A program made the translations under genes and the position numbers. Below, piece by piece: positions 4,211 to 55,710 of a stretch of 64,000 bases of DNA. This DNA comes from a bacterium (GTDB lineage: Bacteria > Patescibacteriota > Patescibacteriia > S139-126), in contig DAOUWZ010000001.1 of NCBI GenBank assembly GCA_030666865.1, positions 44,753-108,752 on the forward strand, in the 5' to 3' direction. The notes beneath the pieces were generated by a model, which was not told the DNA's origin, made no database searches, and saw only the letters and a program-made list of their open reading frames with translations. Numbering within the stretch: position 1 is the first letter of the stretch; each line of letters begins with the position of its first letter.

Positions 4211-4615
4211 TTATAACTCTTCTGAAGTTGTTGTTGCGATATCTGAATTTTTAATCTCTTCTGACTGCTGTTTTATTTTTTCTTTAATATCATCAATTAT
4301 CTTTTGCTCTGTTTTGGTTGTTTCTTCCACTACCTGCGCCTTATCAATTTCTTGTTTTGATTTTGTTTTAAATTCAAAAATATCAGAACCTATTTCATTA
4401 CTGACCTCTTGCAAGCCTTTTATCAATGTATTGCTTTCTTTCCTATGACCACTCCAAGAATCACTATTTATTATCCAAAAAACCCACCCAATTAACACCA
4501 ATAAAATAACGACTCCTACTAAATATTTCAATAATTTTTCTTTTTTATGTCTGTGTTGGCTAGTTTTTAAACTTTCGTTTATAATTTTTTCAATTTTTCT
4601 TACTTTCCTTGTCAT
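4211..4615 (-). CDS. Hypothetical single-TM protein with coiled-coil tail
   Basis: 134-aa ORF packed tightly upstream of gyrA, with a TM helix (LVGVVILLVLIGWVFWII). Confidence 0.4.
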   Translation of the reverse strand: MTRKVRKIEKIINESLKTSQHRHKKEKLLKYLVGVVILLVLIGWVFWIINSDSWSGHRKESNTLIKGLQEVSNEIGSDIFEFKTKSKQEIDKAQVVEETTKTEQKIIDDIKEKIKQQSEEIKNSDIATTTSEEL

Positions 4616-4640
4616 AACAAAATTAATTACGCAACAAACT

Positions 4641-5282
4641 TTATGGCTGCAGGATTATTAACCTACTTTCATCCTGAGGTAGGTCACGAGCAGTAATTCT
4701 AACCTTATCAGTATTCTCAACTTTGGATGTACCCAATTCTTTAACAAATAAATCTGCTGCATCAAGCGGCAACTTACTACCAGGAAATTTATAATATATT
4801 GGAATTATTATTCTTGGCTCAATCGCTTGAACCAAATGAGCAGCCTGCTTCGCGTTTAAACTGTCATGCCCGCCGATCGGAACAAAAAGAACATCAGCGT
4901 TCTCTATCTGCTCTAATTGACTGTCAGTTAAATCTTTTTGACTCATCTGACCCAAATGCACAATATTCATATCCTCAACTTCAATAGAATAAATTATTTT
5001 ACCAGTAGGAATGTCGCCGCCATCATACTCAGAAATACCGTAAACAAATATTTGTTTTGATTCGTACTCACCTGGACTGTCAATCAAAAAACAACTTTCA
5101 GAAAGTTTCAAATTTTTATCCAATTTACCACTGGTCATCAAAACCATGTCAGCGTCCATTTTTGGCTGCCTCAAACCAATCGTCTTAACAACAAATGGAT
5201 CTATAAGTAAATTTGAATCACCATTTTGAGGTGACTTTGTCTGCATTTTTATAAATGTTTGTCCGTACCATTGAATATACAT
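4641..5282 (-). CDS. MBL-fold metal-dependent hydrolase (UPF0173-like)
   Basis: MYIQWYGQTFIKM...LLIDPF N-terminus typical of the metallo-beta-lactamase-fold UPF0173 family. Start taken at the internal Met; the track ORF extends to 5315. Confidence 0.5.
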   Translation of the reverse strand: MYIQWYGQTFIKMQTKSPQNGDSNLLIDPFVVKTIGLRQPKMDADMVLMTSGKLDKNLKLSESCFLIDSPGEYESKQIFVYGISEYDGGDIPTGKIIYSIEVEDMNIVHLGQMSQKDLTDSQLEQIENADVLFVPIGGHDSLNAKQAAHLVQAIEPRIIIPIYYKFPGSKLPLDAADLFVKELGTSKVENTDKVRITARDLPQDESRLIILQP

Positions 5283-5352
5283 ATTTACTTGGTTAATACG
5301 TAGAAATATTACCATTTTTAGTTGAAAAAATCAACTGTTTATTATAAAATTC

Positions 5353-5994
5353 TTAAATCTGCAGAGTAGGTAAATTCTTTGATTTTTTTTTAACATCTCT
5401 CAAATTAGTTGCCTTTGATTTGTTATTTTCTTTAACTTGATTATCAGTCTCTACTTTTTTGTTGATATCATGCACTGTAGCGGATTTGTTATTTTCTACA
5501 TTTTGCCAAGCTGTCTTTTCAGGATTAATAAAACTATTTCTCATAGAATTCACTCTTCTGTCTTTCGCTGAGATACCGCTTTTTACTGATGTGTGCCTAG
5601 CTGGTCTTTTATCCTCTTTGGTTTCTTTGCCTGTTAATTTCCTTACCATATCTTCAGCTCTTTTAGACTTGTCCTCTTTTATTCGCGATTTTTTAATTCT
5701 TTCTTTTCTTAATTCGTCTTGATAAGAGTCATATTCCATTTGTTTTTCCTTTAAATAACCCTCCCACCTTGAACTCGCTCCTGAGCCACTTTCAGCAATC
5801 GCTTGCTTAAATTGTCCTTCAGTCATGGTTTTACCAGAAATCAACAATTTATTATTACCAGCTTGTTTTTTAAATTTGACTATATCGCGAGTAGTCATCT
5901 TCATATGATTTTTCAAAAAATCCTCTTGTTGAGCATGATTCAATCTAAGCTTATTTAATTTGTAAACTGGTTTTTTGCCAGATAAAAATCCCAT
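5353..5994 (-). CDS. Hypothetical basic Lys/Arg-rich protein
   Basis: 213-aa ORF. Low-complexity charged sequence, no recognisable domain. Confidence 0.4.
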   Translation of the reverse strand: MGFLSGKKPVYKLNKLRLNHAQQEDFLKNHMKMTTRDIVKFKKQAGNNKLLISGKTMTEGQFKQAIAESGSGASSRWEGYLKEKQMEYDSYQDELRKERIKKSRIKEDKSKRAEDMVRKLTGKETKEDKRPARHTSVKSGISAKDRRVNSMRNSFINPEKTAWQNVENNKSATVHDINKKVETDNQVKENNKSKATNLRDVKKKSKNLPTLQI

Positions 5995-12827: not shown

Positions 12828-13517
12828 TTATCTAACATTACAATTTTTTACAAAAATTTTTAATTCTTGAGACAATTCTCGAAGCTCTTCATCCGAATAT
12901 GAAACCTCTCCCATAAGACTTGGGTCACATACTTTTGTTGGAATAAATCTTTGCAAATAATAATTTTCTGCGCCTTTGATTGTTTGTGCAATTTTTCTCA
13001 AATCGTCTTTACTAGTAAGAGATTTCACAATTGTCGTTCTGAATTCATACTCAATACTGGATTTCATTATTAAATTAATGCTTGTTTTTAGCTTATTGAT
13101 CAACACTGAACATCCCACAAACTTTGAATAATTTTCTAGTGGCGCTTTGACATCCATGGCAAGGTAATCAATCAATTTTTTATCAATCAATTTTTTCAGC
13201 ATCTCCGGTTTACTTCCATTACTGTCCAATTTTACCAAAAATCCCATTTCTTTTATCTCCCTAATCACTTTTGGTAAGTCTGGATGCAGAGTCGGCTCTC
13301 CTCCGGTAATACTTACGGCATCTAGCTTGTTTTGCCGAATTTTTAAAAAACTATAAATTTCTGCCAGCGGAATTTTTGACGCATATTTTTCAGGTATAAC
13401 CAATTCTGGATTATGACAATAAGAACAGCGAAAATTACAACCTATGGTAAAAATTATGGCGGAGGTTTTTCCCGGATAATCAATCAAAGAAAACTTTTGT
13501 AAACCACCAATAATCAT
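12828..13517 (-). CDS. nrdG: Anaerobic ribonucleoside-triphosphate reductase activating protein (radical SAM)
   Basis: CNFRCSYCHN radical-SAM cluster motif. Overlaps nrdD stop by 4 nt. Confidence 0.8.
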   Translation of the reverse strand: MIIGGLQKFSLIDYPGKTSAIIFTIGCNFRCSYCHNPELVIPEKYASKIPLAEIYSFLKIRQNKLDAVSITGGEPTLHPDLPKVIREIKEMGFLVKLDSNGSKPEMLKKLIDKKLIDYLAMDVKAPLENYSKFVGCSVLINKLKTSINLIMKSSIEYEFRTTIVKSLTSKDDLRKIAQTIKGAENYYLQRFIPTKVCDPSLMGEVSYSDEELRELSQELKIFVKNCNVR

Positions 13518-15610
13518 ATCTCTAATTTATACGTTTTCCGTATATCAAATTCAGCTTTTTTACCATCGTTCCATTGTTTTACAGGGCGCAAATAACCGAC
13601 AATTCTTGAATAAATTTCACACGAACTCTGACACTTAGGGCAAACTGGAACATCACCAGAAATATATCCATGAATTGGGCAGACACTGAATGTTGGGGTT
13701 AAGGTAAAATAAGGCAAACGATAATCTTTACATATTTTTTTCACCAAATTTTTGACACTCGTTCCATCTTCAATTTTTTCACCAAGAAAAAAATGTAAAA
13801 CAGTGCCACCGGTATATTTTGTCTGCAAGTCGTCCTGTAATTCTAAAACTTCAAAAATATCATCAGTAAAATTAACCGGCAAATGTGATGAATTGGTATA
13901 AAACGGACTTTTAACATTTTTCCCTTTTCCATTGGCAAAAATCGCATTCCCGCATTCCTTTTGATCAAGTAATGCCAACCTATATGACGTTCCCTCAGCA
14001 GGCGTTGCTTCAAGATTATAATTATTTCCAGTATCTTCCTGAAAAATAAGGAGTATTTTACGCATATATTCAAGTACTTCTTCTGCAAATTTTTTACCTT
14101 TGACTGTCGCTATTGTCCCACCATAAAAATTTTGTATTGCCTCATTCATTCCTACAATGCCAATAGTAGAAAAATGATTTTTCCAAAAACTACCATGACG
14201 GGATTTAATATTTCTTAAATAAAACTCTGTGTATGGATATAAACCACTTTCAGTAAACCGTTCCAGCACTTTTCTTTTCGTTTCCAGACTGTCTTTAGCA
14301 ATAATTAATAATTCCTTTAGATTATCAAAAAATTCTTTCTTGTTTTTCGCATTAAATCCAAGACGAGGCAAATTGATAGTTACCACTCCAATTGAACCTG
14401 TCAACGGATTTGCGCCGAATAAACCGCCACCACGTCTTTCCAACTGTCTGTTATCAATCCTTAACCGACAACACATTGAACGAGCATCATCAGGATTCAT
14501 ATCAGAATTGATAAAATTGGAAAAATAGGGCAAGCCATATTTACCAGTTGCCTGCCATAACAATTTACTGGAATCACTATCCCAATTAAAATCTTTTGTG
14601 ATATTATATGTAGGAATTGGAAAGGTAAAAACACGACCGCTTGAATCACCTTCTGCCATTACTTCCAGAAATGCCTTGTTGAACATATCCATTTCTCTTT
14701 TAAATTCTTTGTATGTTTCTTTTTGTGGCTTGCCTCCAATAATAACTGATTGTTTTTTGTAATAGCTAGGCACAGTTAAATCTAATGTGATATTTGTAAA
14801 CGGCGTCTGGAAACCTACGCGAGTAGGAACATTGATATTGAAAATAAATTCTTGAAGCGCTTGTTTAACTTCTTTATATGATAAATTGTCATACCTTATA
14901 AACGGTGCAAGTAGTGTATCAACATTACTAAATGCCTGAGCGCCAGCCGCCTCGCCCTGCAGAGTGTAAAAAAAATTAACAACCTGTCCAAGAGCCGACC
15001 GAAAATGCTTCGGCGGTTTGCTTGATATTTTTCCTTCAACTCCAGTAAACCCTTCGACTAACAAATCAAAAAGATCCCAACCAACACAATAAACTGAAAG
15101 AAGATTCAAATCATGAATATGAAAATCTCCGTCTGTATGAGCATCTCTAATATTTTTGGGATAAATTTTGTTTAACCAGTAATTTTTGCTTATTTCGCTA
15201 GAAACATAATTATTCAAGCCCTGCAGTGAATAAGACATATTGCTATTTTCTTTAACCTGCCAGTCGGTTTTATACAGATATTGCTCAACCAAACCATTAT
15301 TGACAGAATTGGTAATATTTCTTAACTGATTATGCTGATCTCGGTATAAAATATAAACCTTGGCGGTTTTTTTGAATTTTGAACGCAATAAAACATCTTC
15401 AACAATATCTTGAATTTGTTCAACTTGAATTATTGACTCTTTAACATTCTTTTTAGCGTAAGCTATGACTTTTTGCGTCAGTTTTTGCGCCTCTTTGTTG
15501 TCAAATTCGCCAGTAACTTGACCCGCCTTAGTAATCGCCATAGCTATTTTCTTTTTATCAAAAGAAACTACTTTACCGTTTCGTTTTTTTATTTGTTTGT
15601 GCATAATCAT
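13514..15610 (-). CDS. nrdD: Anaerobic (class III) ribonucleoside-triphosphate reductase
   Basis: N-terminal ATP cone (KRNGKVVSFDKKKI); C-terminal glycyl-radical motif SRIVGYLRP; Zn ribbon CPIHG...CPKC. Confidence 0.9.
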   Translation of the reverse strand: MIMHKQIKKRNGKVVSFDKKKIAMAITKAGQVTGEFDNKEAQKLTQKVIAYAKKNVKESIIQVEQIQDIVEDVLLRSKFKKTAKVYILYRDQHNQLRNITNSVNNGLVEQYLYKTDWQVKENSNMSYSLQGLNNYVSSEISKNYWLNKIYPKNIRDAHTDGDFHIHDLNLLSVYCVGWDLFDLLVEGFTGVEGKISSKPPKHFRSALGQVVNFFYTLQGEAAGAQAFSNVDTLLAPFIRYDNLSYKEVKQALQEFIFNINVPTRVGFQTPFTNITLDLTVPSYYKKQSVIIGGKPQKETYKEFKREMDMFNKAFLEVMAEGDSSGRVFTFPIPTYNITKDFNWDSDSSKLLWQATGKYGLPYFSNFINSDMNPDDARSMCCRLRIDNRQLERRGGGLFGANPLTGSIGVVTINLPRLGFNAKNKKEFFDNLKELLIIAKDSLETKRKVLERFTESGLYPYTEFYLRNIKSRHGSFWKNHFSTIGIVGMNEAIQNFYGGTIATVKGKKFAEEVLEYMRKILLIFQEDTGNNYNLEATPAEGTSYRLALLDQKECGNAIFANGKGKNVKSPFYTNSSHLPVNFTDDIFEVLELQDDLQTKYTGGTVLHFFLGEKIEDGTSVKNLVKKICKDYRLPYFTLTPTFSVCPIHGYISGDVPVCPKCQSSCEIYSRIVGYLRPVKQWNDGKKAEFDIRKTYKLEI

Positions 15611-15759: not shown

Positions 15760-15890
15760 ATCAATACTCTAAGTAGGCTTGACGCGAGCCAAAAATGGTC
15801 CTCCTTTATGGAGTATAATATGCGAGATCGGACTATTACCGTAGCGCGACTGTGCCGGAATTTCACCGGACTTCACCGCATAACCATTAA
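15760..15890 (-). promoter_or_regulatory. Putative cobalamin (B12) riboswitch aptamer in nrdDG leader
   Basis: GC-rich island on the minus strand: GCGGTGAAGTCCGGTGAAATTCCGGCACAGTCGCGCTACGGTAATAG. This resembles the cobalamin riboswitch core GGTGAAAATCC...CCCGC.ACTGTAA, and the E. coli btuB CAGTGCGAATCTGGAGCTGACGCGCAGCGGTAAGG. Confidence 0.4.
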
Positions 15891-16060
15891 TGAAATTAAA
15901 TTATGTAAATGAGTGTTTGTATTATAACATAATTTGTGAAACTCTAATTTTGGAAGATGTTAATAACTTAATAAAATTATTTAATTTTAACTAAAATGCT
16001 AAATAAAAAATAACTAAATACAAAAAACGCCTAACCCTTGTTTTATTACTATTATTTCTA

Positions 16061-16417
16061 CTAAATATCAACAAACGGCTCCTGATTAACTTTTTTGCTA
16101 ATCAAACAAGACTCCTCTACCCAATGTTTTATTTCTTCTTTATTTTCCAATACAGAAAGCGGCAATTCCCAATAAGACAACGATACTTTTTTATTTTTTC
16201 TATAATAAACAAACGGTTGAGAATGGTGTTTTTCATATTTAGCTTGATTGGTTTCGTCAACTTTAAAATAAATATTGTTATTAGAAACAATAGCAAATAT
16301 TATTCCGTCTTTATAAATACCATAACTGCTAAACATCGGCCGATAGCTTATATCATCAATTCCTAATAAAACATCGTAAACAATATATTCAAGAAAATTT
16401 GTGTCTAGTTTTGTCAT
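16061..16417 (-). CDS. TfoX N-terminal domain protein
   Basis: YRPMFSSYGIYKDGIIFAIVSNNNIYFKVD matches the TfoX_N pattern (R.MFGGYG.Y.DG..FA.....LY.K.D). Confidence 0.5.
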   Translation of the reverse strand: MTKLDTNFLEYIVYDVLLGIDDISYRPMFSSYGIYKDGIIFAIVSNNNIYFKVDETNQAKYEKHHSQPFVYYRKNKKVSLSYWELPLSVLENKEEIKHWVEESCLISKKVNQEPFVDI

Positions 16418-17017: not shown

Positions 17018-17893
17018 ATGAAACAAACAGTAACTAAAGCTATTGTCACTGTAGCTGGAACTGGAACTAGATTTATTCCGGCTACTAAAAACATCCCAAA
17101 AGAAATGCTACCAATTGTTGATAAACCAATTGTCCAGTATGATGTGGAAGAACTGGTAGCTTCTGGTATTAAAGATATAGTTTTGGTTACCAAACAAGGT
17201 GGCGGAGCTATTGAAAACCATTTTGACACAAATCCAGAATTGGAAGAACAATTAAAAAAGACTAATAAAAAAGAATATTTAAAAATAGTACAAAAAATTC
17301 CCCGCCTGGCCAATTTTATTTACATGCGCCAAAAATCATTTATGCCTTATGGGAATGCCACTCCCCTGCGCTTGGCAAAAAATATTGTGGCAGATGGTCC
17401 GTTTCTTTATCTTTTTGGTGATGACCTTACTTTATCAAAAGTGCCGGTCTGTAAACAATTAATTGATTTATATAAAAAAAATCCTGATGTCTGCGCAATT
17501 ATCGCCGCACAAAAAATTCCCCGAAAATATGCTTACCGCTATGGCATGATTAAACTAAAACCAGGTACCAAAAATGTGTATGATAGTATTGTTGAAAAAC
17601 CAAAACTAGGAAAAGAACCATCCAATTTAGCTGGTTTTGGCAGATATCTATTTACCCCAAAAATTATTCCTATAATTGAAAAACTAAAAACAGGCAAAAA
17701 TAATGAACTATGGTTAGTTGATGCAATCAACGAACTAGCTAAAATTGAAAAGGTTTTAGTTCATGAAATTGAAGGTAAATGGATTACTACTGGCGATCCT
17801 TTGAATTATCTCAAAGCTTCAGTAGAGTTTGCTCTTGCCAGAAATGATCTAAAGAAAGATTTTAAACAATATTTAAAAACAGTCGTAAAATAA
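17018..17893 (+). CDS. galU: UTP--glucose-1-phosphate uridylyltransferase
   Basis: TKAIVTVAGTGTRFIPATKNIPKEMLPIVDKPIVQYDVEE is the GalU signature. Confidence 0.85.
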   Translation: MKQTVTKAIVTVAGTGTRFIPATKNIPKEMLPIVDKPIVQYDVEELVASGIKDIVLVTKQGGGAIENHFDTNPELEEQLKKTNKKEYLKIVQKIPRLANFIYMRQKSFMPYGNATPLRLAKNIVADGPFLYLFGDDLTLSKVPVCKQLIDLYKKNPDVCAIIAAQKIPRKYAYRYGMIKLKPGTKNVYDSIVEKPKLGKEPSNLAGFGRYLFTPKIIPIIEKLKTGKNNELWLVDAINELAKIEKVLVHEIEGKWITTGDPLNYLKASVEFALARNDLKKDFKQYLKTVVK

Positions 17894-17903
17894 TTTAATA
17901 AAT

Positions 17904-19307
17904 ATGAAAAAAAAGCATATTACTAAACTTTTTCTCTTATTAATCCTGATTAGTCTTCCCATTTTGGGTTTTGGCTGCAAAGGCGGTGATAAAGCCGCCC
18001 AAAAAGCTGCTCAACCAGTTACCATAAAATTCTGGGGTGTTTGGGATGAAGAAGATTATTGGAAAGAAATTTTTAGTGATTATAAACAATCACATCCAAA
18101 TGTAAAATTTGAATATCGTAAATTAAGAATTGAAGAATACGAACGCGCCTTGCTAGAAGCCTGGGCTGAAGACAGAGGACCTGATATTTTTATGCTCCAT
18201 AATACTTGGATTCGCGGTTATCAAAACAAGCTGGAACCCCTACCAACAAAAATAACCTTACCAGCCAAAGAAGTACAAGGTTCTATAAAAAAAGAAATAG
18301 TTTGGGTAATGAAAGAATTTCCAACTATCACCACCGCTCAAGTAGAAGAAAAATTTGTTGACATCGTAGCCGAAGATATTATCGTTGACAATCAAATCTA
18401 TGCCCTGCCAATGTCTATTGATACTTTAGTACTATATTATAATTCCAATATATTTAATGACGCAGGAATTGCCACTTATCCTGGCACTTGGATTGATTTC
18501 AAAAACGCAGTTAAAGCCATTACCAAGCTAAACGAAGATAATAAAATCCTAAGAAGCGCTGTAGCGATGGGAAGATCTGATAATGTTGATCGTTCAGTTG
18601 ATTTACTATCAGTTTTGATGATGCAAAACGGAGCCCAAATGATTGACGCCAGCGGTCGACCAACTTTCAATATAACTCCCCATGAAGGATCCAAGGATTA
18701 TAATCCAGGCTCTCAAGCTTTGATATTTTATACAGACTTTGCCAATCCAATTAAAGAAGTTTACACTTGGAATGAGGGTTTCTCTTCTTCTCTAGAAGCT
18801 TTTGCTCAAGGACAAACAGCTATGATGTTTGGCTATTCATACCATGAACCACTAATCAAAGCCCGGGGTCCTAAAATAAATTTCAAAATAGCCCCGCTGC
18901 CACAAATTGACCCGTTGTCAAAAAAATATAATTTTGCCAATTACTGGACTATGGGCATTTCCAAAAAAGGAGAAGTAAAAAGAAAAGACACAGCCTGGGA
19001 TTTCCTGTTGTTCGCCACTACCAAGTCAAAAGAAGTTGAAAAATATCTGAAAAAATCAAACAAAGCTCCAGCGCTTAGAGAACTAATTGAAAAAGAAATA
19101 AAAGAACCATTACCCTCGCCTTTTGCCACTCAAGTTTTAACTGCTAAAAGCTGGTATCGTGGATATAATTCTAATGCAACAGAAGAGATTATGAAACGAC
19201 TAATAAGTAATATTAATAAAGGTAATTTTTCCAATATCCAAAGTCTGCTTAACAACGCGGTTGACCAAATCAAACAAACTTATATAAAACCATCTTATGC
19301 GCAATAA
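17904..19307 (+). CDS. Extracellular solute-binding lipoprotein (ABC sugar-transporter SBP family 1-like)
   Basis: Lipobox LGFGC; 467 aa; SBP-like two-lobe composition. No permease or ATPase genes adjacent. Confidence 0.5.
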   Translation: MKKKHITKLFLLLILISLPILGFGCKGGDKAAQKAAQPVTIKFWGVWDEEDYWKEIFSDYKQSHPNVKFEYRKLRIEEYERALLEAWAEDRGPDIFMLHNTWIRGYQNKLEPLPTKITLPAKEVQGSIKKEIVWVMKEFPTITTAQVEEKFVDIVAEDIIVDNQIYALPMSIDTLVLYYNSNIFNDAGIATYPGTWIDFKNAVKAITKLNEDNKILRSAVAMGRSDNVDRSVDLLSVLMMQNGAQMIDASGRPTFNITPHEGSKDYNPGSQALIFYTDFANPIKEVYTWNEGFSSSLEAFAQGQTAMMFGYSYHEPLIKARGPKINFKIAPLPQIDPLSKKYNFANYWTMGISKKGEVKRKDTAWDFLLFATTKSKEVEKYLKKSNKAPALRELIEKEIKEPLPSPFATQVLTAKSWYRGYNSNATEEIMKRLISNINKGNFSNIQSLLNNAVDQIKQTYIKPSYAQ

Positions 19308-19398: not shown

Positions 19399-19467
19399 TA
19401 CAAGAAACAAACACCTGCCTGCCGGCAGGCAGGAACTACAAATTAAAAAATTCCAAATCTTAAACCA
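19399..19467. repeat. ~70-nt direct repeat copy A (contains 20-nt palindrome CCTGCCTGCCGGCAGGCAGG)
   Basis: TACAAGAAACAA..ACCTGCCTGCCGGCAGGCAGGAA.TACAAATTAAAAAATTC...AATCT.AAACC. About 90% identical to copy B at 20156..20226. Confidence 0.6.
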
Positions 19468-19527: not shown

Positions 19528-20118
19528 ATGAGTATAAAATCCATCTCTTATTCAATCCTCTTTATTACTTTATTGATATTCCCACAAATTTCTAAAGCTG
19601 GATTTATTCCCCAAGAATGTCTTGATGAAAAAGCTGAAAATTGTGGATTGGAACAATTTACCGAATTATTTGTTTTTCTTTATTATTTTTCGCTTAAATA
19701 TTTAGGCGCGCTGGCCTTGCTTTTATTTGTAGTTGGTGGAATTATGTGGCTGACTTCTGGAGGTAATCAGGAAAGAGTAGCTAAGGGGAGAAAAATTCTA
19801 GTTGGCACGACTGTGGGTATCATGATTGTGCTGGGCAGTTTTGCAATTGTAAGTAAAATGCAGGAATATATTGGAGTTAGTACAGGCAATAAAGAAACAG
19901 GATCTCCCAATTTTAGAATTCAAGAAAATCCAGATATAAATAAGGATAAAGCATGTCGAATGCAAAATGGAACATGTATGCAATGCACAAAAAAAAATAG
20001 TGACCCAAAAGAACCGATTGACTGCCTTCCTACAACTGCTGATGTTACTCATAGTTGTCAAGGAAAATTTGTTGAGGGATTATGCCCTGGTGGAAAAGAT
20101 AATATGTGTTGTATATAA
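19528..20118 (+). CDS. T4SS-pilin-like (TrbC/VirB2-like) double-TM protein with cysteine-rich C-terminal domain
   Basis: Signal peptide; motif FVVGGIMWLTSGGNQERVAKGRKIL shared with five downstream paralogs. C-terminus ACRMQNGTCMQCTKK...DCLP...HSCQGKFVEGLCPGGKDNMCCI has 10 Cys. Confidence 0.5.
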   Translation: MSIKSISYSILFITLLIFPQISKAGFIPQECLDEKAENCGLEQFTELFVFLYYFSLKYLGALALLLFVVGGIMWLTSGGNQERVAKGRKILVGTTVGIMIVLGSFAIVSKMQEYIGVSTGNKETGSPNFRIQENPDINKDKACRMQNGTCMQCTKKNSDPKEPIDCLPTTADVTHSCQGKFVEGLCPGGKDNMCCI

Positions 20119-20155
20119 GTAGATTGTAGGTAGTGGTTTATAGAAGATAGATATT

Positions 20156-20226
20156 TACAAGAAACAAGATACCTGCCTGCCGGCAGGCAGGAATTACAAA
20201 TTAAAAAATTCACTAATCTAACCAAA
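20156..20226. repeat. ~70-nt direct repeat copy B
   Basis: See copy A. Together the two copies flank only the first pilin-like gene. Confidence 0.6.
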
Positions 20227-20380
20227 GTTGTCTGACCGCTATACATTTATTTGACATTAAATCATTTTGATTTGATTTGATATTTAGATTTTTTAATTTG
20301 TATATAATAATAGTCTGTGTTATAATATTATTAACCCTAAACTAGGGTCATTCGTTAAGAAATAAAAATTACCTTTAGAA

Positions 20381-20389
20381 AGGAGGTGA
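20381..20389 (+). promoter_or_regulatory. Strong Shine-Dalgarno (AGGAGGTGA) for pilin-like gene 2
   Basis: AAAGGAGGTGAAAATATG. TATAAT-like boxes lie at about 20293 and 20318 upstream. Confidence 0.55.
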
Positions 20390-20393
20390 AAAT

Positions 20394-20756
20394 ATGAAAA
20401 AACAAATTTTATCACTCGGAATTTTAACTGCTCTTTTAACTCCATTTGTAGCTTTTGGTCAAACTGATATGTTCGGAACTGGCTATGGAACAGCGATCGG
20501 CCTAGGAACTCAAGATGTTAGAGAAACTATTTCCAAAATTATTAATGTAGTATTAGGAATTTTAGGTATTGTAGTTACTTTGATTATCATTGCTGGTGGT
20601 TTCCGTTGGATGACTGCTGGTGGTAATGAAGAATCTGTTGCTCAAGCTAAAAAGATTATCAGTTCTGGTGTTATTGGTTTATTAATTATTATTGTTGCTT
20701 ACGCTTTATCTAACTGGATCTTCTCAGTTATTATTGGAGCTACTACCACTCCTTAG
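20394..20756 (+). CDS. T4SS-pilin-like (TrbC/VirB2-like) small double-TM protein
   Basis: Signal peptide, then AGGFRWMTAGGNEESVAQAKKII, then second TM helix. 120 aa. Confidence 0.55.
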   Translation: MKKQILSLGILTALLTPFVAFGQTDMFGTGYGTAIGLGTQDVRETISKIINVVLGILGIVVTLIIIAGGFRWMTAGGNEESVAQAKKIISSGVIGLLIIIVAYALSNWIFSVIIGATTTP

Positions 20757-20836
20757 TATTTAAAATTAGTCTAAGTTAATTACCTCTTTTTTTGGTAATT
20801 AACTCAAATAAACAAATTTTGAAAGAAATTTATATA

Positions 20837-21454
20837 ATGGATTCTCAGTTTTCACAAGTTAAAGATAGATCTATACGTTACCATATCACGGTGGCTGTCA
20901 TTCTGATAGCCACCGTGATTATTGGTTGCGGTTTGACCTTGGCTTCTATTTCTGCTGAAGAAATAAATCAAGGTCAGACTCATTTAGCTCAATACTATGG
21001 CTTAGATACTGCAGCTCCCAATGCTTTAACAAAACAGGATGATATCGCTACCCAGTCTGGAAAAATTATTAAAGCTATTTTAGGATTAACAGGTATAATA
21101 TTATTATATTTACTTGTTTTCGGTGGTTTCACTTGGATGACTGCTGGCGGTAATCCAGAAAAAATTGAAAAAGCTAGAAAGTTAATCACCAGCGCTATTA
21201 TTGGTTTCATTTTGATGTTTATGTCATATTCTCTCACTATATTAATTGCTAGAAATTTCTTTACTACGCCTAGTGAATCTCCGACATTAGGTCCAAATTC
21301 ATGTATTTGGACTGATGTAAGTCCTCCAACCACATATTGTTGGCAATGGACTAATGCTCCTCAAGCAGACTGTGATGCTGATGGTGGTACATTTAGCCCT
21401 AACACTCCATGTCCTGGACATACCGCTGACGAAGAAGGAGAATGGCCAATATAA
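20837..21454 (+). CDS. T4SS-pilin-like protein with C-terminal Cys/Trp-rich extension
   Basis: FGGFTWMTAGGNPEKIEKARKLI motif. C-terminus NSCIWTDVSPPTTYCWQWTNAPQADCDADGGTFSPNTPCPGH has 4 Cys. Start taken at ATG 20837; a TTG at 20792 is also possible. Confidence 0.5.
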   Translation: MDSQFSQVKDRSIRYHITVAVILIATVIIGCGLTLASISAEEINQGQTHLAQYYGLDTAAPNALTKQDDIATQSGKIIKAILGLTGIILLYLLVFGGFTWMTAGGNPEKIEKARKLITSAIIGFILMFMSYSLTILIARNFFTTPSESPTLGPNSCIWTDVSPPTTYCWQWTNAPQADCDADGGTFSPNTPCPGHTADEEGEWPI

Positions 21455-21461
21455 AATTATT

Positions 21462-21827
21462 ATGAAAAATATTATAAAAAAAATTTCTATTTTATTTGTT
21501 ACCCTCTTAATAAAAACAAATATTGTCCTAGCTCAAGACCCAGGCGCTATGCTTGGTAAGACAGGTTCTACAGCTGGTTTAAAAAATGTAGACACATCTC
21601 AACTAGTTGGACAAATTATCAAAGGATTTATTGGCTTTATGGGGACTGTTTTTATGTTATTGATAGTATATGCTGGATTTTTATGGATGACTGCCCAAGG
21701 CAATGAAGAAAAAATAACCAAAGCCAAAAATACTATTCAAAGCTCTGTTATTGGTCTTTTAATAGTAGCCCTGTCATATGTGATAGTTCAATTTGTATTT
21801 GACACTCTGATCGGCGCTGGCTTGTGA
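21462..21827 (+). CDS. T4SS-pilin-like small double-TM protein
   Basis: Signal peptide (MKNIIKKISILFVTLLIKTNIVLA), then YAGFLWMTAQGNEEKITKAKNTI. Starts 8 nt after the previous stop. Confidence 0.55.
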   Translation: MKNIIKKISILFVTLLIKTNIVLAQDPGAMLGKTGSTAGLKNVDTSQLVGQIIKGFIGFMGTVFMLLIVYAGFLWMTAQGNEEKITKAKNTIQSSVIGLLIVALSYVIVQFVFDTLIGAGL

Positions 21828-21877
21828 TATAGTATATAGTATTTGGTATGTAGTATATAGGTAAATTCAACCCACTA

Positions 21878-21928
21878 TGTCATTCCGGAATTTTTCTGTA
21901 GTAAAACGAAAGAAAAATATCCGGAATC
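21878..21928. repeat. Paired ATTCCGGAAT palindromes sharing the TGTCATTCC motif with repeat at 1174
   Basis: TGTCATTCCGGAAT ...32 nt... ATCCGGAATC. Confidence 0.35.
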
Positions 21929-21945
21929 TAGAAACAAAAAAATAA

Positions 21946-22341
21946 ATGAAAAAAATATTCAAAAATTTAACTCTTTCCAGTATCACTACTTATTTTTTTA
22001 TGCTGAGTATAAAAATTGCTAATGCTTCAGCTCTGACAGATGCTCAAAAAGCAGCTAGTGATTCAGCTGATGCTGGAGGGTTAGCTAAAGATCAAGAATT
22101 ATCTGATGTTATAGGAACTATTATCAACTCCGCCATCGGGCTCTTGGGTAGTATTTTTATGTTATTGATAGTATATAGCGGGTTTTTATGGATGACTGCT
22201 CAAGGTAATGAGGAGCAAATTGGAAAAGCTAAAAAAATACTACAAAACTCCTCGATTGGACTATTGATAGTTATTTTATCTTTCTTAATATCACTATTTA
22301 TAATTAATGTAATAATTAAGGCTGAGAATCCAAATGTTTAA
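21946..22341 (+). CDS. T4SS-pilin-like small double-TM protein
   Basis: YSGFLWMTAQGNEEQIGKAKKIL motif; 131 aa. Confidence 0.55.
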   Translation: MKKIFKNLTLSSITTYFFMLSIKIANASALTDAQKAASDSADAGGLAKDQELSDVIGTIINSAIGLLGSIFMLLIVYSGFLWMTAQGNEEQIGKAKKILQNSSIGLLIVILSFLISLFIINVIIKAENPNV

Positions 22342-22759
22342 TTATAAAAAAATATCATTCATTTTTGTGTTATCCTTGTTAATTTTTAATTTATTAGCAA
22401 TACCAATTTTAGTATCAGCTCAAACAACCACTCCAGCTAGTGTTAGAATCAAAGAAGGGATTACAGATACTGGGGCAAAAGCAGGCCTTGTTCAAGAAGG
22501 TACTGAAACAGAGCTACCGCTTATTATTATGAGAATTGTTAAACAATTACTTGCACTGCTTGGTACAATATTTACTATTTTGATAATGTATGGCGGATTT
22601 TTATGGATGACTGCTGGCGGAAATGAAGAACAAGTTGGCAAGGCTAGAAAAATATTGCAAAATGCCGTCATTGGTTTATTAATAGTGGCTCTATCTTATG
22701 CTATCAGCACTTTTATTATTGGTAATGTCCAAAAAGAAGTTGATCAAATTTATTTTTAG
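22334..22759 (+). CDS. T4SS-pilin-like small double-TM protein
   Basis: YGGFLWMTAGGNEEQVGKARKIL motif; 141 aa. Overlaps the previous gene by 8 nt. Confidence 0.55.
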   Translation: MFNYKKISFIFVLSLLIFNLLAIPILVSAQTTTPASVRIKEGITDTGAKAGLVQEGTETELPLIIMRIVKQLLALLGTIFTILIMYGGFLWMTAGGNEEQVGKARKILQNAVIGLLIVALSYAISTFIIGNVQKEVDQIYF

Positions 22760-22772
22760 GTTCAGCTTATAT

Positions 22773-22807
22773 AAAAAATCAGATTGTTAACAAACAATCT
22801 GATTTTT
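22773..22807 (+). terminator. Rho-independent terminator ending the pilin-like array
   Basis: AAAAATCAGATTGTT-AACA-AACAATCTGATTTTTT perfect hairpin plus T-run. Confidence 0.7.
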
Positions 22808-22918
22808 TGATTGATATTAATATGTAGTGACAGAGCAATGCTTTGTCACTACGGTTTAAAAAAATAAATATTATATTGTTCAACTCTAGGTGTGGGTTTT
22901 ATTTAATATACATCTTTC

Positions 22919-51584: not shown

Positions 51585-52735
51585 AAAAAACTAATTGGAT
51601 AAATTTTCTTCATTTTTATTTACCTCCCACTTCTGATCCAGAAATAATTCATGAAGCAGCGAGTCGTAGTTATGATTGGATTGCCGAAATGGCTGTCAAA
51701 TATTCTGATTTCCGTTTTACCTTCAATATGAATGCTTGTCTTACTGAAATGCTAATACAAAACGGCTATAAAAAATTATTAAGCACTTTTGAAAAACTAA
51801 TAAAAAAAAATCAACTAGAGATTGTGGACTCTTTGGCGTATCATCCTATTGCTCCGTTAATTTCTGAAAATGAAGTAATAGAACAAATAAAAGAAAATCA
51901 AAAAATTAACAGAAGAGTTTTTGGAAAAAAAGCCCATGGTTTTTTCTTGCCAGAAATGGCCTATTCACCAAAAATTGGTAAATTAATTTCTTCTTTGGGA
52001 TATAAATGGCTAATATTAGATGAAATAAGCCATAACGGCAAATTAAATCAAGTTGATTGGCAGAACAAATATACACTTAAAAATACAGACTTAAACATTG
52101 TATATCGTTCACGTTTTTGGTCAAAAGAATACGTTCCTCGATTAATTATAAATAAATCGGATAATTTACCAAAAAATATAATTACCGCCACAGATGGTGA
52201 GCTTTATGGACATAGATTTGTTGATTGGGAAGGATGGCTTGTAAAAATAATAAAAAATAAAAATATTAATTTTTTAACAGTTAGTGAATATTTAAAAAAT
52301 ATTAAAAATACAACCACCACCAGCCCAATATCTTCTAATTGGGAAAGTTTGGAAAAAGAACTAAAAAATAACCGTGCATTTGGTCTTTGGATTAATAAAA
52401 AAAATAATATTCAAAACAAACTTTGGGAATTAGCCTCAACCTCAATTGAACATGTAAAAAATAATAGTAGTGACGAAAATATATTTTGGGCAAAAAGACA
52501 TCTGCGCAGAGGTTTGGCTAGTTGTACTTTTTGGTGGGCATCAGGAAGAGATTTTAGATTGTTTGGACCTCCAGCTTGGAAACCCGATGAAGTAGAAAAA
52601 GGAATCAATGAATTGATTAAAGCAATCCGAACTCTAAAAATATCATCTACAAAAAAAATAGAAGCTGAAAAATTATACACACAAATAAAAAAAGCTTTAT
52701 GGACTAAACATTGGCAAGTGTATGACAAAAAATAA
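51581..52735 (+). CDS. Glycoside hydrolase family 57-like protein
   Basis: INFLHFYLPP... and EIVDSLAYHPIAPL resemble GH57 signature blocks (H.H.P..., ...YHPILPL). Confidence 0.5.
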   Translation: MKKTNWINFLHFYLPPTSDPEIIHEAASRSYDWIAEMAVKYSDFRFTFNMNACLTEMLIQNGYKKLLSTFEKLIKKNQLEIVDSLAYHPIAPLISENEVIEQIKENQKINRRVFGKKAHGFFLPEMAYSPKIGKLISSLGYKWLILDEISHNGKLNQVDWQNKYTLKNTDLNIVYRSRFWSKEYVPRLIINKSDNLPKNIITATDGELYGHRFVDWEGWLVKIIKNKNINFLTVSEYLKNIKNTTTTSPISSNWESLEKELKNNRAFGLWINKKNNIQNKLWELASTSIEHVKNNSSDENIFWAKRHLRRGLASCTFWWASGRDFRLFGPPAWKPDEVEKGINELIKAIRTLKISSTKKIEAEKLYTQIKKALWTKHWQVYDKK

Positions 52736-54761
52736 ATTCACAACCAAACAAATCGAAGTTATTGTAAAAAAAGTATCAAAAAAATTTAATCTCACGCCCC
52801 AATATATTATGAGTACTAGTGGTGAATTTTTTGTTAAAACCTATGTTGTAAATAAAAAAACTTACTTATTGAAAATAAGAAAATTAAAATCACCAAAAAA
52901 CAAACAAAGATTTATCAAAGAAATAAATATCAACCACTTACTATCTAAAAAAAACATACCCTATCTAGAAACTCCTAAATTTATAGAATCAAATACAAAA
53001 CTCAAACCTGAATATTTATTATACGAGCTAATTAATGGCACGCCTTTAAATACTTATTATTTTTATTTAGGCACTAGGCGAACGCAAAATTTACTAAACT
53101 CTCATTTTTTAGAAATTATACAAAATATTCAAAAAATTAAACCAACTAAAAAACTGGGATTAAAAAAATTTTATTTTCAAAACAATTATAATGAATATTT
53201 AAAATATGAAAAATATTTAAAAAAATATTTATCAACAAAAAATTTGCGTAGAATTAAAAAAGCTCTGCAATTAAATAAACATTATTTAAATAATTGCGAT
53301 TTGGTAATTACCCATGGTGATTTAAATCCCAAAAATCTTATTTTAAAAAATAATAAATTAGCCATCATTGACTGGAGTGACACTCATCTTAACAATCCTT
53401 TATTTGATTTATGCTCTTTGTACATGTATTCATGGAACATACCTGAAGTAGAAAAAAATATAAAAAAATATATAAATGAAAAATATCAAAACATAGAGAA
53501 TGTTGATAAATTATATTTAATCAACCGCATTATATCAACTCCTAAAATTATAAAAATTACAGAAGACTCAATTAAAGGTTTAAAACTTGATAAAAAAAAT
53601 AAAATTATCTTGCCAACTACTGAAAAAAAACTTGAACGCAAAGCAGAAAAAGCTATTAAAACTCATATTGAATCGTTACTTGATATTATCGAGCATTTTG
53701 AATTATGGCAAAAACCAATTCCTGTTATAAAATCTATAGACAAATTCTGTAATACAATATTTATAAAAAAATTCTTACATCAAGAAAAAGATAATTTGAA
53801 TATCAATATCAATTATAACGACTTATCTGTTAAAAGATTGCGCTTGACCATTAGACCTGGTGATCAAAAATTAATATCACAATACACTTTAACTGATAAG
53901 AATAAACGAAAAATAATAATAATGGCAAAAATCAGAATGGAAAGAGGTGACGATTTAGCCAAGCAGTCATATCAAACAATTAAAGCTATCTGGAACAATA
54001 AAAAAAATAAGCACATGATTTCAAAACCGCTTAATTATTATAAAAAATACAACTTGTATTTATATAATAAAACAATAGGTGATTCAATTTCCTTATTAAT
54101 AGAAAATAAAAAAATAAACAAAAATACTCTCAAAAAGCATGTTAAACAAGCAGGTGAAACCATGTCTGAACTTCACAATATTGATATTACCAATTTTTCA
54201 AAAATAAAATTTATAGATAATTATGGCACAGATGAACAGCTAAAATGGTTTAAGTTCTATTTAAATAAAATACCCCAACTAGATACTAAAAAAAACCATT
54301 CTTTGCCCAAAAAAACTAAAAATTTGATTGACAAATATTTAAATAATAATCAAAAAACTTTCGTCCATGGCGATTTTCAATTACAAAACCTCATTGTTCA
54401 TAAAAATAAAATAAAACTTATTGATTTTGATAACTCTGATATTAATGATCCGTTGCTAGATGTTGGAAATTTTCTAAATCAACTTAATTATAAAGGATTA
54501 TTAAAAGAAGGGGTTGACGATTTAAGAAAAATATTTTTAAAATCATATTTAAAAAATAACCCCAAATTATCTAAAATAAATTTTAACGAGAGATTAAATA
54601 TTTACATCATCATGGGGATTATAAAAAATATCAATTTCAATTGTTTGTCAGGAGATTTTGTCATTGCCAAACATGATATTAAAAAATTATTTTTTCTCAT
54701 AAAAAATCTTTCTAAAAATCCTCTTGTTAATCTAAAAAGTATAAAAAAATTTATTCATTAA
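52722..54761 (+). CDS. Tandem APH/choline-kinase-fold phosphotransferase (two kinase-like domains), Lys/Asn-rich
   Basis: Two HGDxxxxN...IDW/F-D catalytic blocks: ITHGDLNPKNLILKNNKLAIIDWSD and VHGDFQLQNLIVHKNKIKLIDFDNS. Confidence 0.5.
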   Translation: MTKNKFTTKQIEVIVKKVSKKFNLTPQYIMSTSGEFFVKTYVVNKKTYLLKIRKLKSPKNKQRFIKEININHLLSKKNIPYLETPKFIESNTKLKPEYLLYELINGTPLNTYYFYLGTRRTQNLLNSHFLEIIQNIQKIKPTKKLGLKKFYFQNNYNEYLKYEKYLKKYLSTKNLRRIKKALQLNKHYLNNCDLVITHGDLNPKNLILKNNKLAIIDWSDTHLNNPLFDLCSLYMYSWNIPEVEKNIKKYINEKYQNIENVDKLYLINRIISTPKIIKITEDSIKGLKLDKKNKIILPTTEKKLERKAEKAIKTHIESLLDIIEHFELWQKPIPVIKSIDKFCNTIFIKKFLHQEKDNLNININYNDLSVKRLRLTIRPGDQKLISQYTLTDKNKRKIIIMAKIRMERGDDLAKQSYQTIKAIWNNKKNKHMISKPLNYYKKYNLYLYNKTIGDSISLLIENKKINKNTLKKHVKQAGETMSELHNIDITNFSKIKFIDNYGTDEQLKWFKFYLNKIPQLDTKKNHSLPKKTKNLIDKYLNNNQKTFVHGDFQLQNLIVHKNKIKLIDFDNSDINDPLLDVGNFLNQLNYKGLLKEGVDDLRKIFLKSYLKNNPKLSKINFNERLNIYIIMGIIKNINFNCLSGDFVIAKHDIKKLFFLIKNLSKNPLVNLKSIKKFIH

Positions 54762-54763
54762 TT

Positions 54764-55705
54764 ATGGAGACCAAAAAAATTAAAGAATATCTAATAAACA
54801 ATAATTTATTTAGAAAACCAAAAATAAACACCTTGGGTAAGGGAAATATTCATAATGCTTGGCTAATAAAAGAAGGAAAAGAAAAATACTGTTTACTTGC
54901 AAATAATAATATCTTAATAAAAGACAATGGCCTAGAAAGACAATATCTTAATTTAAAATTTTTAGAAGATGAAAAAATTAACTTCTGCTCTAAACCAATA
55001 TTTTTTGATAAAAAAAATAAAATACTCATATACACATACATACCAGGTAATACTCTAAATAACAAAACTATAAATAAAACTACTATTAATAATATAGCCA
55101 CTAACATTTATAAAATTCACAACATTCCTTATAAAAACTACAAAAAATTTACTAAAAAAAATAACATTAAACCCCTTTTACCTCAAACACCCATTGAAAA
55201 CTTGCATCAATATGGAATAAACAGATTCAAATACATAAAAAAATACAATTACGACAAAAATCTAACCAAATGGATAGAATCTCAACTTCAAGAAACAAAA
55301 AAATATGTAAAAGAATTGGGCTACTTCAAAAAAAACATTATTTTTGATCATGCTGATATTACAAAAAACAATGTAATAAAAAATAAACAAGGAATTTTTT
55401 TTATTGATTGGGAACAAGCTAAATACTTATATAACATTGATTATGGTCTTACCTATATATATATTCACGGTGGATTTAATGATAGAGAATTTATGCAATT
55501 GATTGAATTGTATGCTAGTTTGGAAAAACTATCACCAAGTATTTTATACAATAAGGTAAAAGAATTAGAAAAAATAAATAAAATAAAGGATATTGTTTGG
55601 GCAGCTATGGTGTATACTGAGGTTAAGTTTAAAAAATTAAAAAAAGATGAATATTATAAAAAAATAATTGATAAAAGAATTAGAGAATTCAAAAAGTTAA
55701 TTTAA
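54764..55705 (+). CDS. APH/choline-kinase-fold phosphotransferase
   Basis: DHADITKNNVIKNKQGIFFIDWEQA catalytic block. Confidence 0.5.
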   Translation: METKKIKEYLINNNLFRKPKINTLGKGNIHNAWLIKEGKEKYCLLANNNILIKDNGLERQYLNLKFLEDEKINFCSKPIFFDKKNKILIYTYIPGNTLNNKTINKTTINNIATNIYKIHNIPYKNYKKFTKKNNIKPLLPQTPIENLHQYGINRFKYIKKYNYDKNLTKWIESQLQETKKYVKELGYFKKNIIFDHADITKNNVIKNKQGIFFIDWEQAKYLYNIDYGLTYIYIHGGFNDREFMQLIELYASLEKLSPSILYNKVKELEKINKIKDIVWAAMVYTEVKFKKLKKDEYYKKIIDKRIREFKKLI

Positions 55706-55710
55706 TATAT

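Follow-up and report, generated by a model that had tools for sequence, protein, structure and literature searches.

The locus described here raises the question of what an array of six related genes for small membrane proteins does in the chromosome of a bacterium of the Patescibacteria (candidate phyla radiation, CPR), and whether the encoded proteins are type IV secretion system (T4SS) pilins. The array consists of six co-oriented open reading frames (ORFs) on the + strand, ORF1 to ORF6, at positions 19528-22759 of a 64-kb stretch of contig DAOUWZ010000001.1; this whole stretch is referred to as the window. The reading that we favour, with a probability of roughly 0.62, is that six VirB2-like paralogs of the PF18895 (T4SS_pilin) family form a chromosomal array that looks co-transcribed, and that their products would be exported and assembled by a VirB4-type machine with ORF2 as the major subunit. 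Arrays of pilin genes have already been published for Patescibacteria (PMC12102498, PMC10633639, PMC12857230), so the finding falls in a described category and the locus is a typical further example of it.

Gene calls, family assignment and predicted fold

An initial annotation of the window had described six tandem paralogous genes resembling T4SS pilins, and all six are present. Their longest-ORF coordinates are 19528-20118 (196 aa), 20394-20756 (120 aa), 20792-21454 (220 aa), 21354-21827 (157 aa), 21946-22341 (131 aa) and 22334-22759 (141 aa). The starts of ORF3 and ORF4 in this list are probably too far upstream, because gene calls on an identical Logan contig (L001) begin at 20837 and 21462; in the revised coordinates of Table 1, a TTG codon at 20792 is replaced by an ATG codon at 20837 for ORF3, and an ATG codon at 21354, inside ORF3, by an ATG codon at 21462 for ORF4. 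A hidden Markov model of the family, run against the six-frame translation of the window, matches these six ORFs and no others. Since the E-values for PF18895 range from 6e-12 to 1e-4 and pairwise identity among the six ORFs is 24-50%, they are true paralogs and not products of chance similarity. The array was also said to be closed by a strong terminator, and a terminator-like hairpin is indeed found 3' of ORF6, with further hairpins behind it. A separate G-C-rich inverted repeat of 16 bp (ATCACGGTGGCTGTC...GATAGCCACCGTGAT; positions 20885-20919, + strand) is located within ORF3, in the 5' part of its coding region where the signal-anchor segment is encoded; it was flagged as terminator-like by the scan and might attenuate read-through from ORF2.

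Table 1. Features of the pilin-gene array and its 5' flank (positions in the window; bit scores refer to PF18895)
Feature	Position	Strand	Remarks
GalU-like UTP-glucose-1-phosphate uridylyltransferase	17018-17893	+	Pfam NTP_transferase; 10 nt before the SBP gene
Orphan carbohydrate-type solute-binding protein (SBP), lipoprotein-like N-terminus	17904-19307	+	Pfam SBP_bac_1/SBP_bac_8; directly 5' of the array
Repeat copy 1, 41-nt direct repeat with 20-nt perfect palindrome CCTGCCTGCCGGCAGGCAGG	19413-19453		SBP-ORF1 spacer; palindrome 19414-19433
ORF1, pilin-family protein of the "first pilin after SBP" type	19528-20118	+	196 aa; 22.6 bits; orthologs annotated PF18895
Repeat copy 2	20171-20211		275-nt ORF1-ORF2 spacer; palindrome 20172-20191
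Strong Shine-Dalgarno sequence AGGAGGTGA	20381-20389	+	4 nt 5' of the ORF2 ATG
ORF2, short pilin, candidate major subunit	20394-20756	+	120 aa; 45.9 bits (best)
ORF3, pilin with long signal-anchor-like N-terminus and C-terminal tail	20837-21454	+	205 aa; 42.4 bits
ORF4, short pilin paralog	21462-21827	+	121 aa; 32.9 bits
ORF5, short pilin paralog	21946-22341	+	131 aa; 35.0 bits
ORF6, short pilin paralog	22334-22759	+	141 aa; 37.1 bits; 8-nt overlap with ORF5
Terminator-like hairpin closing the array	22772-22809	+	17-bp A/T-rich stem with only 3 G-C pairs, then T run

The pilin assignment is borne out by Pfam: with a gathering score of 26.6 bits for PF18895, ORF2 to ORF6 lie above the cutoff and ORF1 just under it. 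Despite this sub-threshold score we place ORF1 in the same family, because 6 of its 11 non-identical homologs carry a precomputed PF18895 annotation (P0095, P0097, P0098, P0100, P0101 and P0105) and because the alignment of its subfamily contains the conserved core through which ORF1 can be aligned with the other paralogs. The similarity of ORF2 to TrbC is weak but in register (E = 5.8e-4), and some ORF2 homologs carry a precomputed annotation for the TrbC/VirB2 family PF04956. An hhalign comparison of the family profile with VirB2 of the Agrobacterium Ti plasmid aligns 56 columns in register with E = 3.2e-4, at a probability of only 38.8%; a phmmer search with VirB2 as the query gave no match.

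In architecture, the proteins resemble the PF04956 pilins VirB2, TrbC and TraA (the Agrobacterium T-pilin, RP4 TrbC and F TraA), which are small, carry a long signal peptide and have two hydrophobic helices connected by a basic loop. The initial annotation had ascribed a signal peptide, two transmembrane helices and a basic linker to all six ORFs. By hydropathy, every one of them has two long hydrophobic helices, the loop between which carries a net charge of +1 to +3, and five have a clear N-terminal hydrophobic signal-like segment; that of ORF5 is weaker and falls under the threshold used. AlphaFold returned the expected helix hairpin, namely a signal helix (H2-24) followed by an alpha-hairpin (H42-74 and H79-118) in ORF2, with a confidence (pLDDT) of 82.9; in ORF1 the hairpin has a pLDDT of 76-85 and the tail is of low confidence. 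The supposedly invariant motif GGFxWMTAGGNEE proved to be overstated, as the alignment of the six ORFs leaves only G, G, W, T, G, N, E and G as invariant core columns, and of the motif itself only G..W.T..GN.E: ORF1 reads GGIMWLTSGGNQE, ORF3 has NPE, and ORF4 and ORF5 have AGF/SGF and AQGNEE.

The published arrays are similar in several respects. Quiñonero-Coronel et al. 2025 (PMC12102498) searched 3,035 Patescibacteria genomes with PF18895 among other profiles and found VirB2-like pilins in 1,948 VirB4-containing assemblies, the set in which the pilin count was made, with pilin genes near virB4 in 1,135 of them. They reported 441 arrays of 2-11 pilin genes from 383 assemblies, with a mean identity of 25% and a maximum of 54%, counted genes as an array when they were in tandem with one intervening non-pilin gene allowed, and interpreted the arrays as a possible adaptation to different host strains. 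The locus in the window has the characteristics of these arrays (at least two tandem PF18895/PF04956 genes, low identity among co-oriented paralogs, a CPR chromosome), here with six consecutive genes. In Ca. Southlakia epibionticum ML1, a series of pilin genes within the T4SS cluster is essential (Wang et al. 2023, PMC10633639); the six divergent VirB2-like pilins of Southlakia, equal in number to those found here, are discussed in a review that calls a possible pilus in a monoderm intriguing (FEMS Microbiol Rev 2025, PMC12857230). In cultured Paceibacterales, T4SS-pilin-domain genes are among the most highly expressed genes of unknown function (Kuroda et al. 2024). The initial annotation's suggestion of a variable surface filament connected with epibiotic life matches this published picture. 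Its remark that the architecture has been reported for Gram-positive and CPR genomes holds for the CPR and is inaccurate for the former, because classical Gram-positive T4SSs lack VirB2 pilins (PMC12102498, PMC12857230).

A conserved second gene and its divergent neighbours

Related loci were collected by scanning GTDB species genomes for WMTAGGN[ED], which yielded at least 599 stretches; the best 80 were kept, and all of the related loci were selected as relatives of ORF2. The kept stretches all come from metagenome-assembled genomes (MAGs) of the CPR, namely Magasanikbacteria, Falkowbacteria, Buchananbacteria and Parcubacteria. The related arrays contain 4-15 pilin genes with a mode of 9, so six copies are an unremarkable number, and co-orientation is complete in all 77 arrays of at least three genes. 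One-to-one collinearity with our array is seen in L012, the closest relative, which carries the label Ca. Paceibacter sp.

Within the array, ORF2 stands apart. ORF1 to ORF6 are 36, 82, 44, 53, 48 and 56% identical to their counterparts in the closest relative, and the flanking genes are 66% (SBP), 60% (GT2), 47% (galU-like) and 45% (DUF2079) identical, making ORF2 the most conserved gene of the neighbourhood in this comparison. The near-perfect Shine-Dalgarno (SD) sequence claimed for the second gene was confirmed as AGGAGGTGA, and none of the other five array genes is preceded by a comparable one. Pairing with the anti-SD sequence over at least 8 nt is found for 52 of the 81 ORF2-type orthologs (64%) but for only ~1% of other genes (8 of the 550 remaining pilin genes and 8 of the 836 genes that do not encode pilins). 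This contrast is to be read with caution, since start codons in the comparison genes were assigned by a crude procedure and their SD counts may be too low as a result. ORF2-type genes also have a longer gap upstream, with a median of 95 nt compared to 12 nt for other pilin genes. Because the highest conservation in the neighbourhood coincides with a strong SD sequence specific to its orthologs, ORF2 is a candidate for the major pilin; its type appears to be marked for high expression, and the six genes do not appear to be interchangeable copies. The first three positions, consisting of a Cys-rich long pilin, a conserved short pilin and a long-tailed pilin, recur in two further related loci (L006 and L008).

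The genes on either side of ORF2 encode C-terminal tails. The tail of ORF1 comprises 84 aa with 8 Cys, and the alignment of the ORF1 subfamily combines a conserved core and an invariant N-terminal IPxECL...C motif with a hypervariable Cys-rich tail; the tail of ORF3 comprises 66 aa, is rich in Thr and Pro and contains 4 Cys. C-terminal extensions of more than 40 aa occur in 119 of the 637 pilins of the related loci, and 111 of these 119 contain at least 4 Cys. The first pilin after the SBP in the relatives is typically of the long Cys-rich type (median 214 aa, 8 Cys). Since a VirB2-like topology puts both termini outside, the tails would be exposed, and the paralogs that carry them are likely to be exposed, fast-evolving modules.

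In the mechanism that we propose, the proteins would be exported through the Sec pathway with cleavage of the signal peptide and would reside in the cytoplasmic membrane as two-helix hairpins, with the basic W-M-T-A-G-G-N-E-E...K-A-K-K loop in the cytoplasm and both termini outside, as the sequences and models suggest. A distally encoded VirB4-type T4SS would then, to judge from the family and the literature, extract the subunits and polymerise them into a surface filament. ORF2 would be the abundant, structurally constrained major subunit, consistent with its conservation, its own spacer and its conserved, very strong ribosome-binding site. ORF1 and ORF3 would place their fast-evolving Cys-rich tails on the outside of the filament, ORF4 to ORF6 would be fast-evolving short variants, and all five may function as accessory or variant subunits and add diversity to the exposed surface, with host recognition as a plausible purpose.

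Upstream genes, T4SS machinery and competing readings

The array is preceded by the galU-like gene and the SBP gene. The GalU-like protein scores 264.9 bits against NCBIfam TIGR01099, under the equivalog cutoff of 326.8, and the SBP has only weak matches among the carbohydrate-SBP models of NCBIfam. Among 83 related loci, 52 have a galU-like homolog and 61 an SBP homolog; 59 of the 62 SBP gene copies are located directly upstream of a pilin gene and co-oriented with it, with a median gap of 6 nt, and in one locus (L009) the SBP gene is found inside the pilin array. No ATP-binding cassette (ABC) permease or ATPase partner for the SBP was found among the scanned ORFs of the window or in the examined neighbour clusters of the related loci. 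To judge from this gene order, the galU-like gene, the SBP gene and the pilin array form a conserved unit in the clade that is unlinked from VirB4. The region as a whole is ordinary housekeeping chromosome: 5' of the array the window contains gyrA, S1, SpoIID, Wzx/Wzy, nrdD/nrdG behind an adenosylcobalamin (AdoCbl) riboswitch and a TfoX_N protein in addition to the galU-like gene and the SBP gene (SBP_bac_1), and 3' of it DUF2079, GT2, a sulfatase-like gene, a H+-PPase, nusA, tsaD/E, trigger factor, yebC, ruvC, glycogen synthases, tyrS, a class A penicillin-binding protein and dnaN.

Several results weigh against the VirB4-dependent pilus that we favour. The initial annotation had noted no VirB4, VirB6 or VirD4 genes in the window, and we found none by Pfam scans of 40 of its larger ORFs, by the annotations on an identical Logan contig (L004) for three ORFs at 4211-5994, or by phmmer searches of the six-frame translation of the window, in which Ti VirB4/B6/B3 and pCF10 PrgJ/PcfC/PrgH/PrgI had no match. 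T4SS genes are also absent from the ~12 kb recovered past the ends of the window, where dnaA, rnpA, yidC and polA were found; the portion of the genome seen, consisting of the window and contigs L002 and L004, is ~76 kb. Within 10 kb of the 79 related arrays there are no T4SS core genes (VirB4, VirD4, VirB6, VirB3), and specifically no VirB4-like ATPase in phmmer searches with VirB4, PrgJ and PcfC; the large ORFs with a Walker-A motif in the 83 related loci encode only SMC and a Mg-chelatase/ComM-like protein. The array differs in this respect from the published Patescibacteria and Southlakia arrays, as it does in following a galU-like gene and an SBP gene, and none of the published accounts compared here contains a visualised pilus of the PF18895 family. 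The array also differs from VirB2, TrbC and TraA in that all six proteins score below the PF04956 cutoff of 27.9 bits (at best 20.5 bits for ORF2, the others at most 12.7 bits or without a match), so that of the two Pfam families proposed for it by the initial annotation only PF18895 is reached; in that the family profile has no pilin match among all PDB sequences, including solved pilin structures; and in the monoderm host, the lack of adjacent VirB3, VirB4, VirB5 or VirB6 genes, the presence of six paralogs instead of one gene, and the long Cys-rich tails on some of them. The best NCBIfam match for ORF2 to ORF6 is NF045849 at 23.5-35.4 bits, always under the equivalog cutoff of 40 bits, and ORF1 has no match; this is the Mbov_0395 family of Mycoplasma integrative and conjugative elements, also a pilin-like two-helix protein from the T4SS of a wall-less monoderm, where it is encoded on mobile elements beside conjugation genes and not in a housekeeping chromosome. 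Finally, the assignment of major and minor roles is drawn from conservation and ribosome-binding-site strength.

Because the T4SS core genes are absent from the window, its ends and the related loci, the case for dependence of the array on a T4SS is built on homology and on the example of other CPR classes, and its link to such a machine in this genome is one that we infer. Since 2,417 of 3,035 CPR assemblies (80%) carry VirB4, the presence of the ATPase elsewhere in this genome would be quite probable a priori, and T4SS components may be encoded at dispersed loci away from virB4. An origin-proximal T4SS, as in some CPR classes, is not found here. With dnaN at the right end of the window (62292-63392, - strand) and dnaA, rnpA, yidD and yidC just beyond it (L002, 6403-7767), the window abuts the replication origin; the distance between dnaA and the array is ~42 kb, and dnaA is not flanked by T4SS genes. 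In class ABY1 the T4SS locus tends to adjoin comF, recG and radA rather than dnaA, a tendency that the absence of T4SS genes from this origin-proximal window fits.

The same absence can be turned into an argument that the array is independent of a T4SS. The galU-like enzyme, the SBP lipoprotein and the hairpin proteins might constitute a self-contained surface or membrane complex that works without VirB4, possibly as a membrane scaffold or a short fibre by which the SBP and the Cys-rich tails are presented or tethered so that the cell can attach or capture nutrients. The tight and co-oriented placement of the SBP gene ahead of a pilin gene, its lack of an ABC partner and the missing VirB4-like ATPase near the related arrays all agree with such a complex, as do neighbours concerned with the envelope and glycans (Wzx, Wzy, GT2, DUF2079, sulfatase-like). 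We nevertheless consider it unlikely, given that members of the PF18895 family lie beside virB4 in 1,135 of 1,948 CPR assemblies and inside the essential T4SS cluster of Southlakia, and that T4SS components can be dispersed. The conserved gene order could moreover reflect vertical inheritance in one clade, because all of the loci were selected as ORF2 relatives; and in the window itself the gap between the SBP gene and ORF1 is 220 nt long and holds a hairpin, which makes co-transcription of the two uncertain. A related and speculative variant, which we would put forward only tentatively, is that in the ABY1/Magasanikbacteria-like clade the array may have become a separate, self-standing operon, made up of the galU-like gene, the SBP gene and genes for a pilin with a Cys-rich tail, the SD-marked major pilin and variant pilins, which would build a heteropolymeric surface fibre, with accessory subunits and an SBP partner for recognition or capture of host glycans, assembled without a canonical T4SS locus or only loosely coupled to one. 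If true, this would be a functionally differentiated, SBP-associated pilus and not a case of simple antigenic variation.

Antigenic or host-range variation is itself the explanation given for CPR arrays in PMC12102498, and it would make the six proteins alternative major pilins of one T4SS pilus, used in alternation or mixed and without fixed major and minor roles. A precedent is the tandem amplification and divergence of VirB2 paralogs in Bartonella and Anaplasma phagocytophilum (cited in PMC12102498), which is read there as surface variation. Divergence of the paralogs around a conserved core, the fast evolution of five of the six and the range of copy numbers among relatives are what such variants would display. 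Interchangeability sits poorly with the one-to-one correspondence of positions with the closest relative, with the retention of positions 1-3 in L006 and L008, and with the single paralog that is far more conserved and that uniquely has the strong SD sequence and upstream spacer across 81 loci. In contrast to those of Bartonella and Anaplasma, which are Gram-negative intracellular pathogens, the paralogs here combine fixed positions with one strongly conserved copy, and this speaks for a division of labour more than for variation alone. Recent gene conversion or switching of cassettes is likewise unsupported, as inter-paralog DNA repeats are only 63-74% identical and the repeat scan revealed no invertible or silent-cassette structure. 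Interchangeable variants without fixed roles therefore seem rather improbable to us. The assumption that the proteins are not pilins, and that small two-helix membrane proteins of a holin-, bacteriocin-immunity- or toxin-like kind merely resemble them in hydrophobic composition, can draw on weak noise matches to holin and other membrane families in Pfam and on fold searches that return only generic alpha-hairpins, so that the structure cannot tell a pilin from any other two-helix membrane hairpin. We reject this identity as extremely improbable: the PF18895 matches are specific, above the cutoff and reach E = 6e-12, composition does not explain the conserved polar loop motif, the signal peptides look cleavable, and no lysis, phage or bacteriocin genes were found near the array, which is set in a housekeeping chromosome and syntenic across a deep clade.

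Other features of the region and significance

Both spacers around ORF1 contain a copy of a 41-nt direct repeat with a perfect palindrome (Table 1), and the spacer between ORF1 and ORF2 folds more stably than shuffled controls (z = -4.6). This repeat was considered as a regulatory element of the pilin genes and rejected: it is absent from the 79 related arrays, and exact copies of its 23-nt core are scattered over at least 120 metagenome contigs (L091-L170 among them) of 27-69% GC with unrelated flanks, mostly in intergenic positions. Some of the dispersed copies have extended stems or occur in tandem, and none is tied to pilin genes; the palindrome is a candidate for an element like repetitive extragenic palindromes or miniature inverted-repeat transposable elements (REP/MITE-like), or for a protein-binding site.

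The PF18895-type family is large: a profile search of 1.84 billion cluster representatives yields 82,957 members when the limit is E <= 1e-3, and 29,581 when it is E <= 1e-10. Among its representatives P0106-P0254, some have 2-17 pilin modules per chain, such as P0111 with 17 modules in 1775 aa, and others are giant proteins with a single N-terminal pilin module (P0252, 3541 aa; P0254, 3481 aa; P0218, 1878 aa). Such proteins may be genuine fusions, or may anchor huge extracellular domains, or may stem from read-through in the gene calling of recoded CPR lineages. About 20 related loci (L009, L027, L036, L077 and others) have pseudopilin genes of type IV pili (N_methyl, with "GFTLLE" N-termini, one with CarboxypepD_reg) 2-4 kb upstream of the galU-SBP-pilin unit, and a T2SSE ATPase of the PilB/PilT type lies 3' of the array in L008 (12640-13821) and L026; this may reflect a functional neighbourhood of two filament systems or only synteny in the clade. 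Other recurrent neighbours are a glycosyltransferase similar to MGDG synthase and an NYN-domain protein, and inspection by eye added PNPase, phosphoenolpyruvate synthase and ribosomal protein S15. Many species-representative MAGs of GTDB with arrays of the CPR type bear public-record titles such as "uncultured Gammaproteobacteria bacterium", "Candidatus Binatia" or "Candidatus Udaeobacter" (L014, L015, L019, L020, L022-L025, L077 and others), which are evident mislabels.

Elsewhere in the window, a stand-alone TfoX_N protein of 118 aa (16061-16417, - strand) adjoins a tRNA-Ser gene ~3 kb upstream of the array; TfoX/Sxy proteins are regulators of competence genes in other bacteria. An AdoCbl-II riboswitch (15815-15894, - strand; 43.4 bits, gathering score 36.5) is located upstream of nrdD (13514-15610) and nrdG (12828-13517), a placement that is somewhat unexpected because NrdD is B12-independent. 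A markedly low GC content (0.24-0.26 compared to ~0.32) characterises the stretch at 52000-56000, where a choline/ethanolamine-kinase-like gene and one encoding a double APH/RIO-like kinase of 679 aa are inserted between two genes for starch/glycogen synthases and one for a GH57 protein.

The locus leaves the published picture of Patescibacteria pilin arrays unchanged, and the comparison sharpens it. The one genetically tractable Patescibacterium requires its T4SS genes and VirB2-like pilin arrays to grow as an epibiont (PMC10633639). The linkage of galU-like and SBP genes to the array, the Cys-rich tails and a conserved paralog marked by its SD sequence go unmentioned in the published T4SS and pilin accounts compared here. 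What the comparison adds is the nomination of one paralog as the putative major subunit, on the grounds of conservation, a strong ribosome-binding site and its own spacer; the flagging of the paralogs with Cys-rich tails; and, in a large clade in which the array is unlinked from the T4SS ATPase, an orphan SBP as a candidate partner of the pilins.

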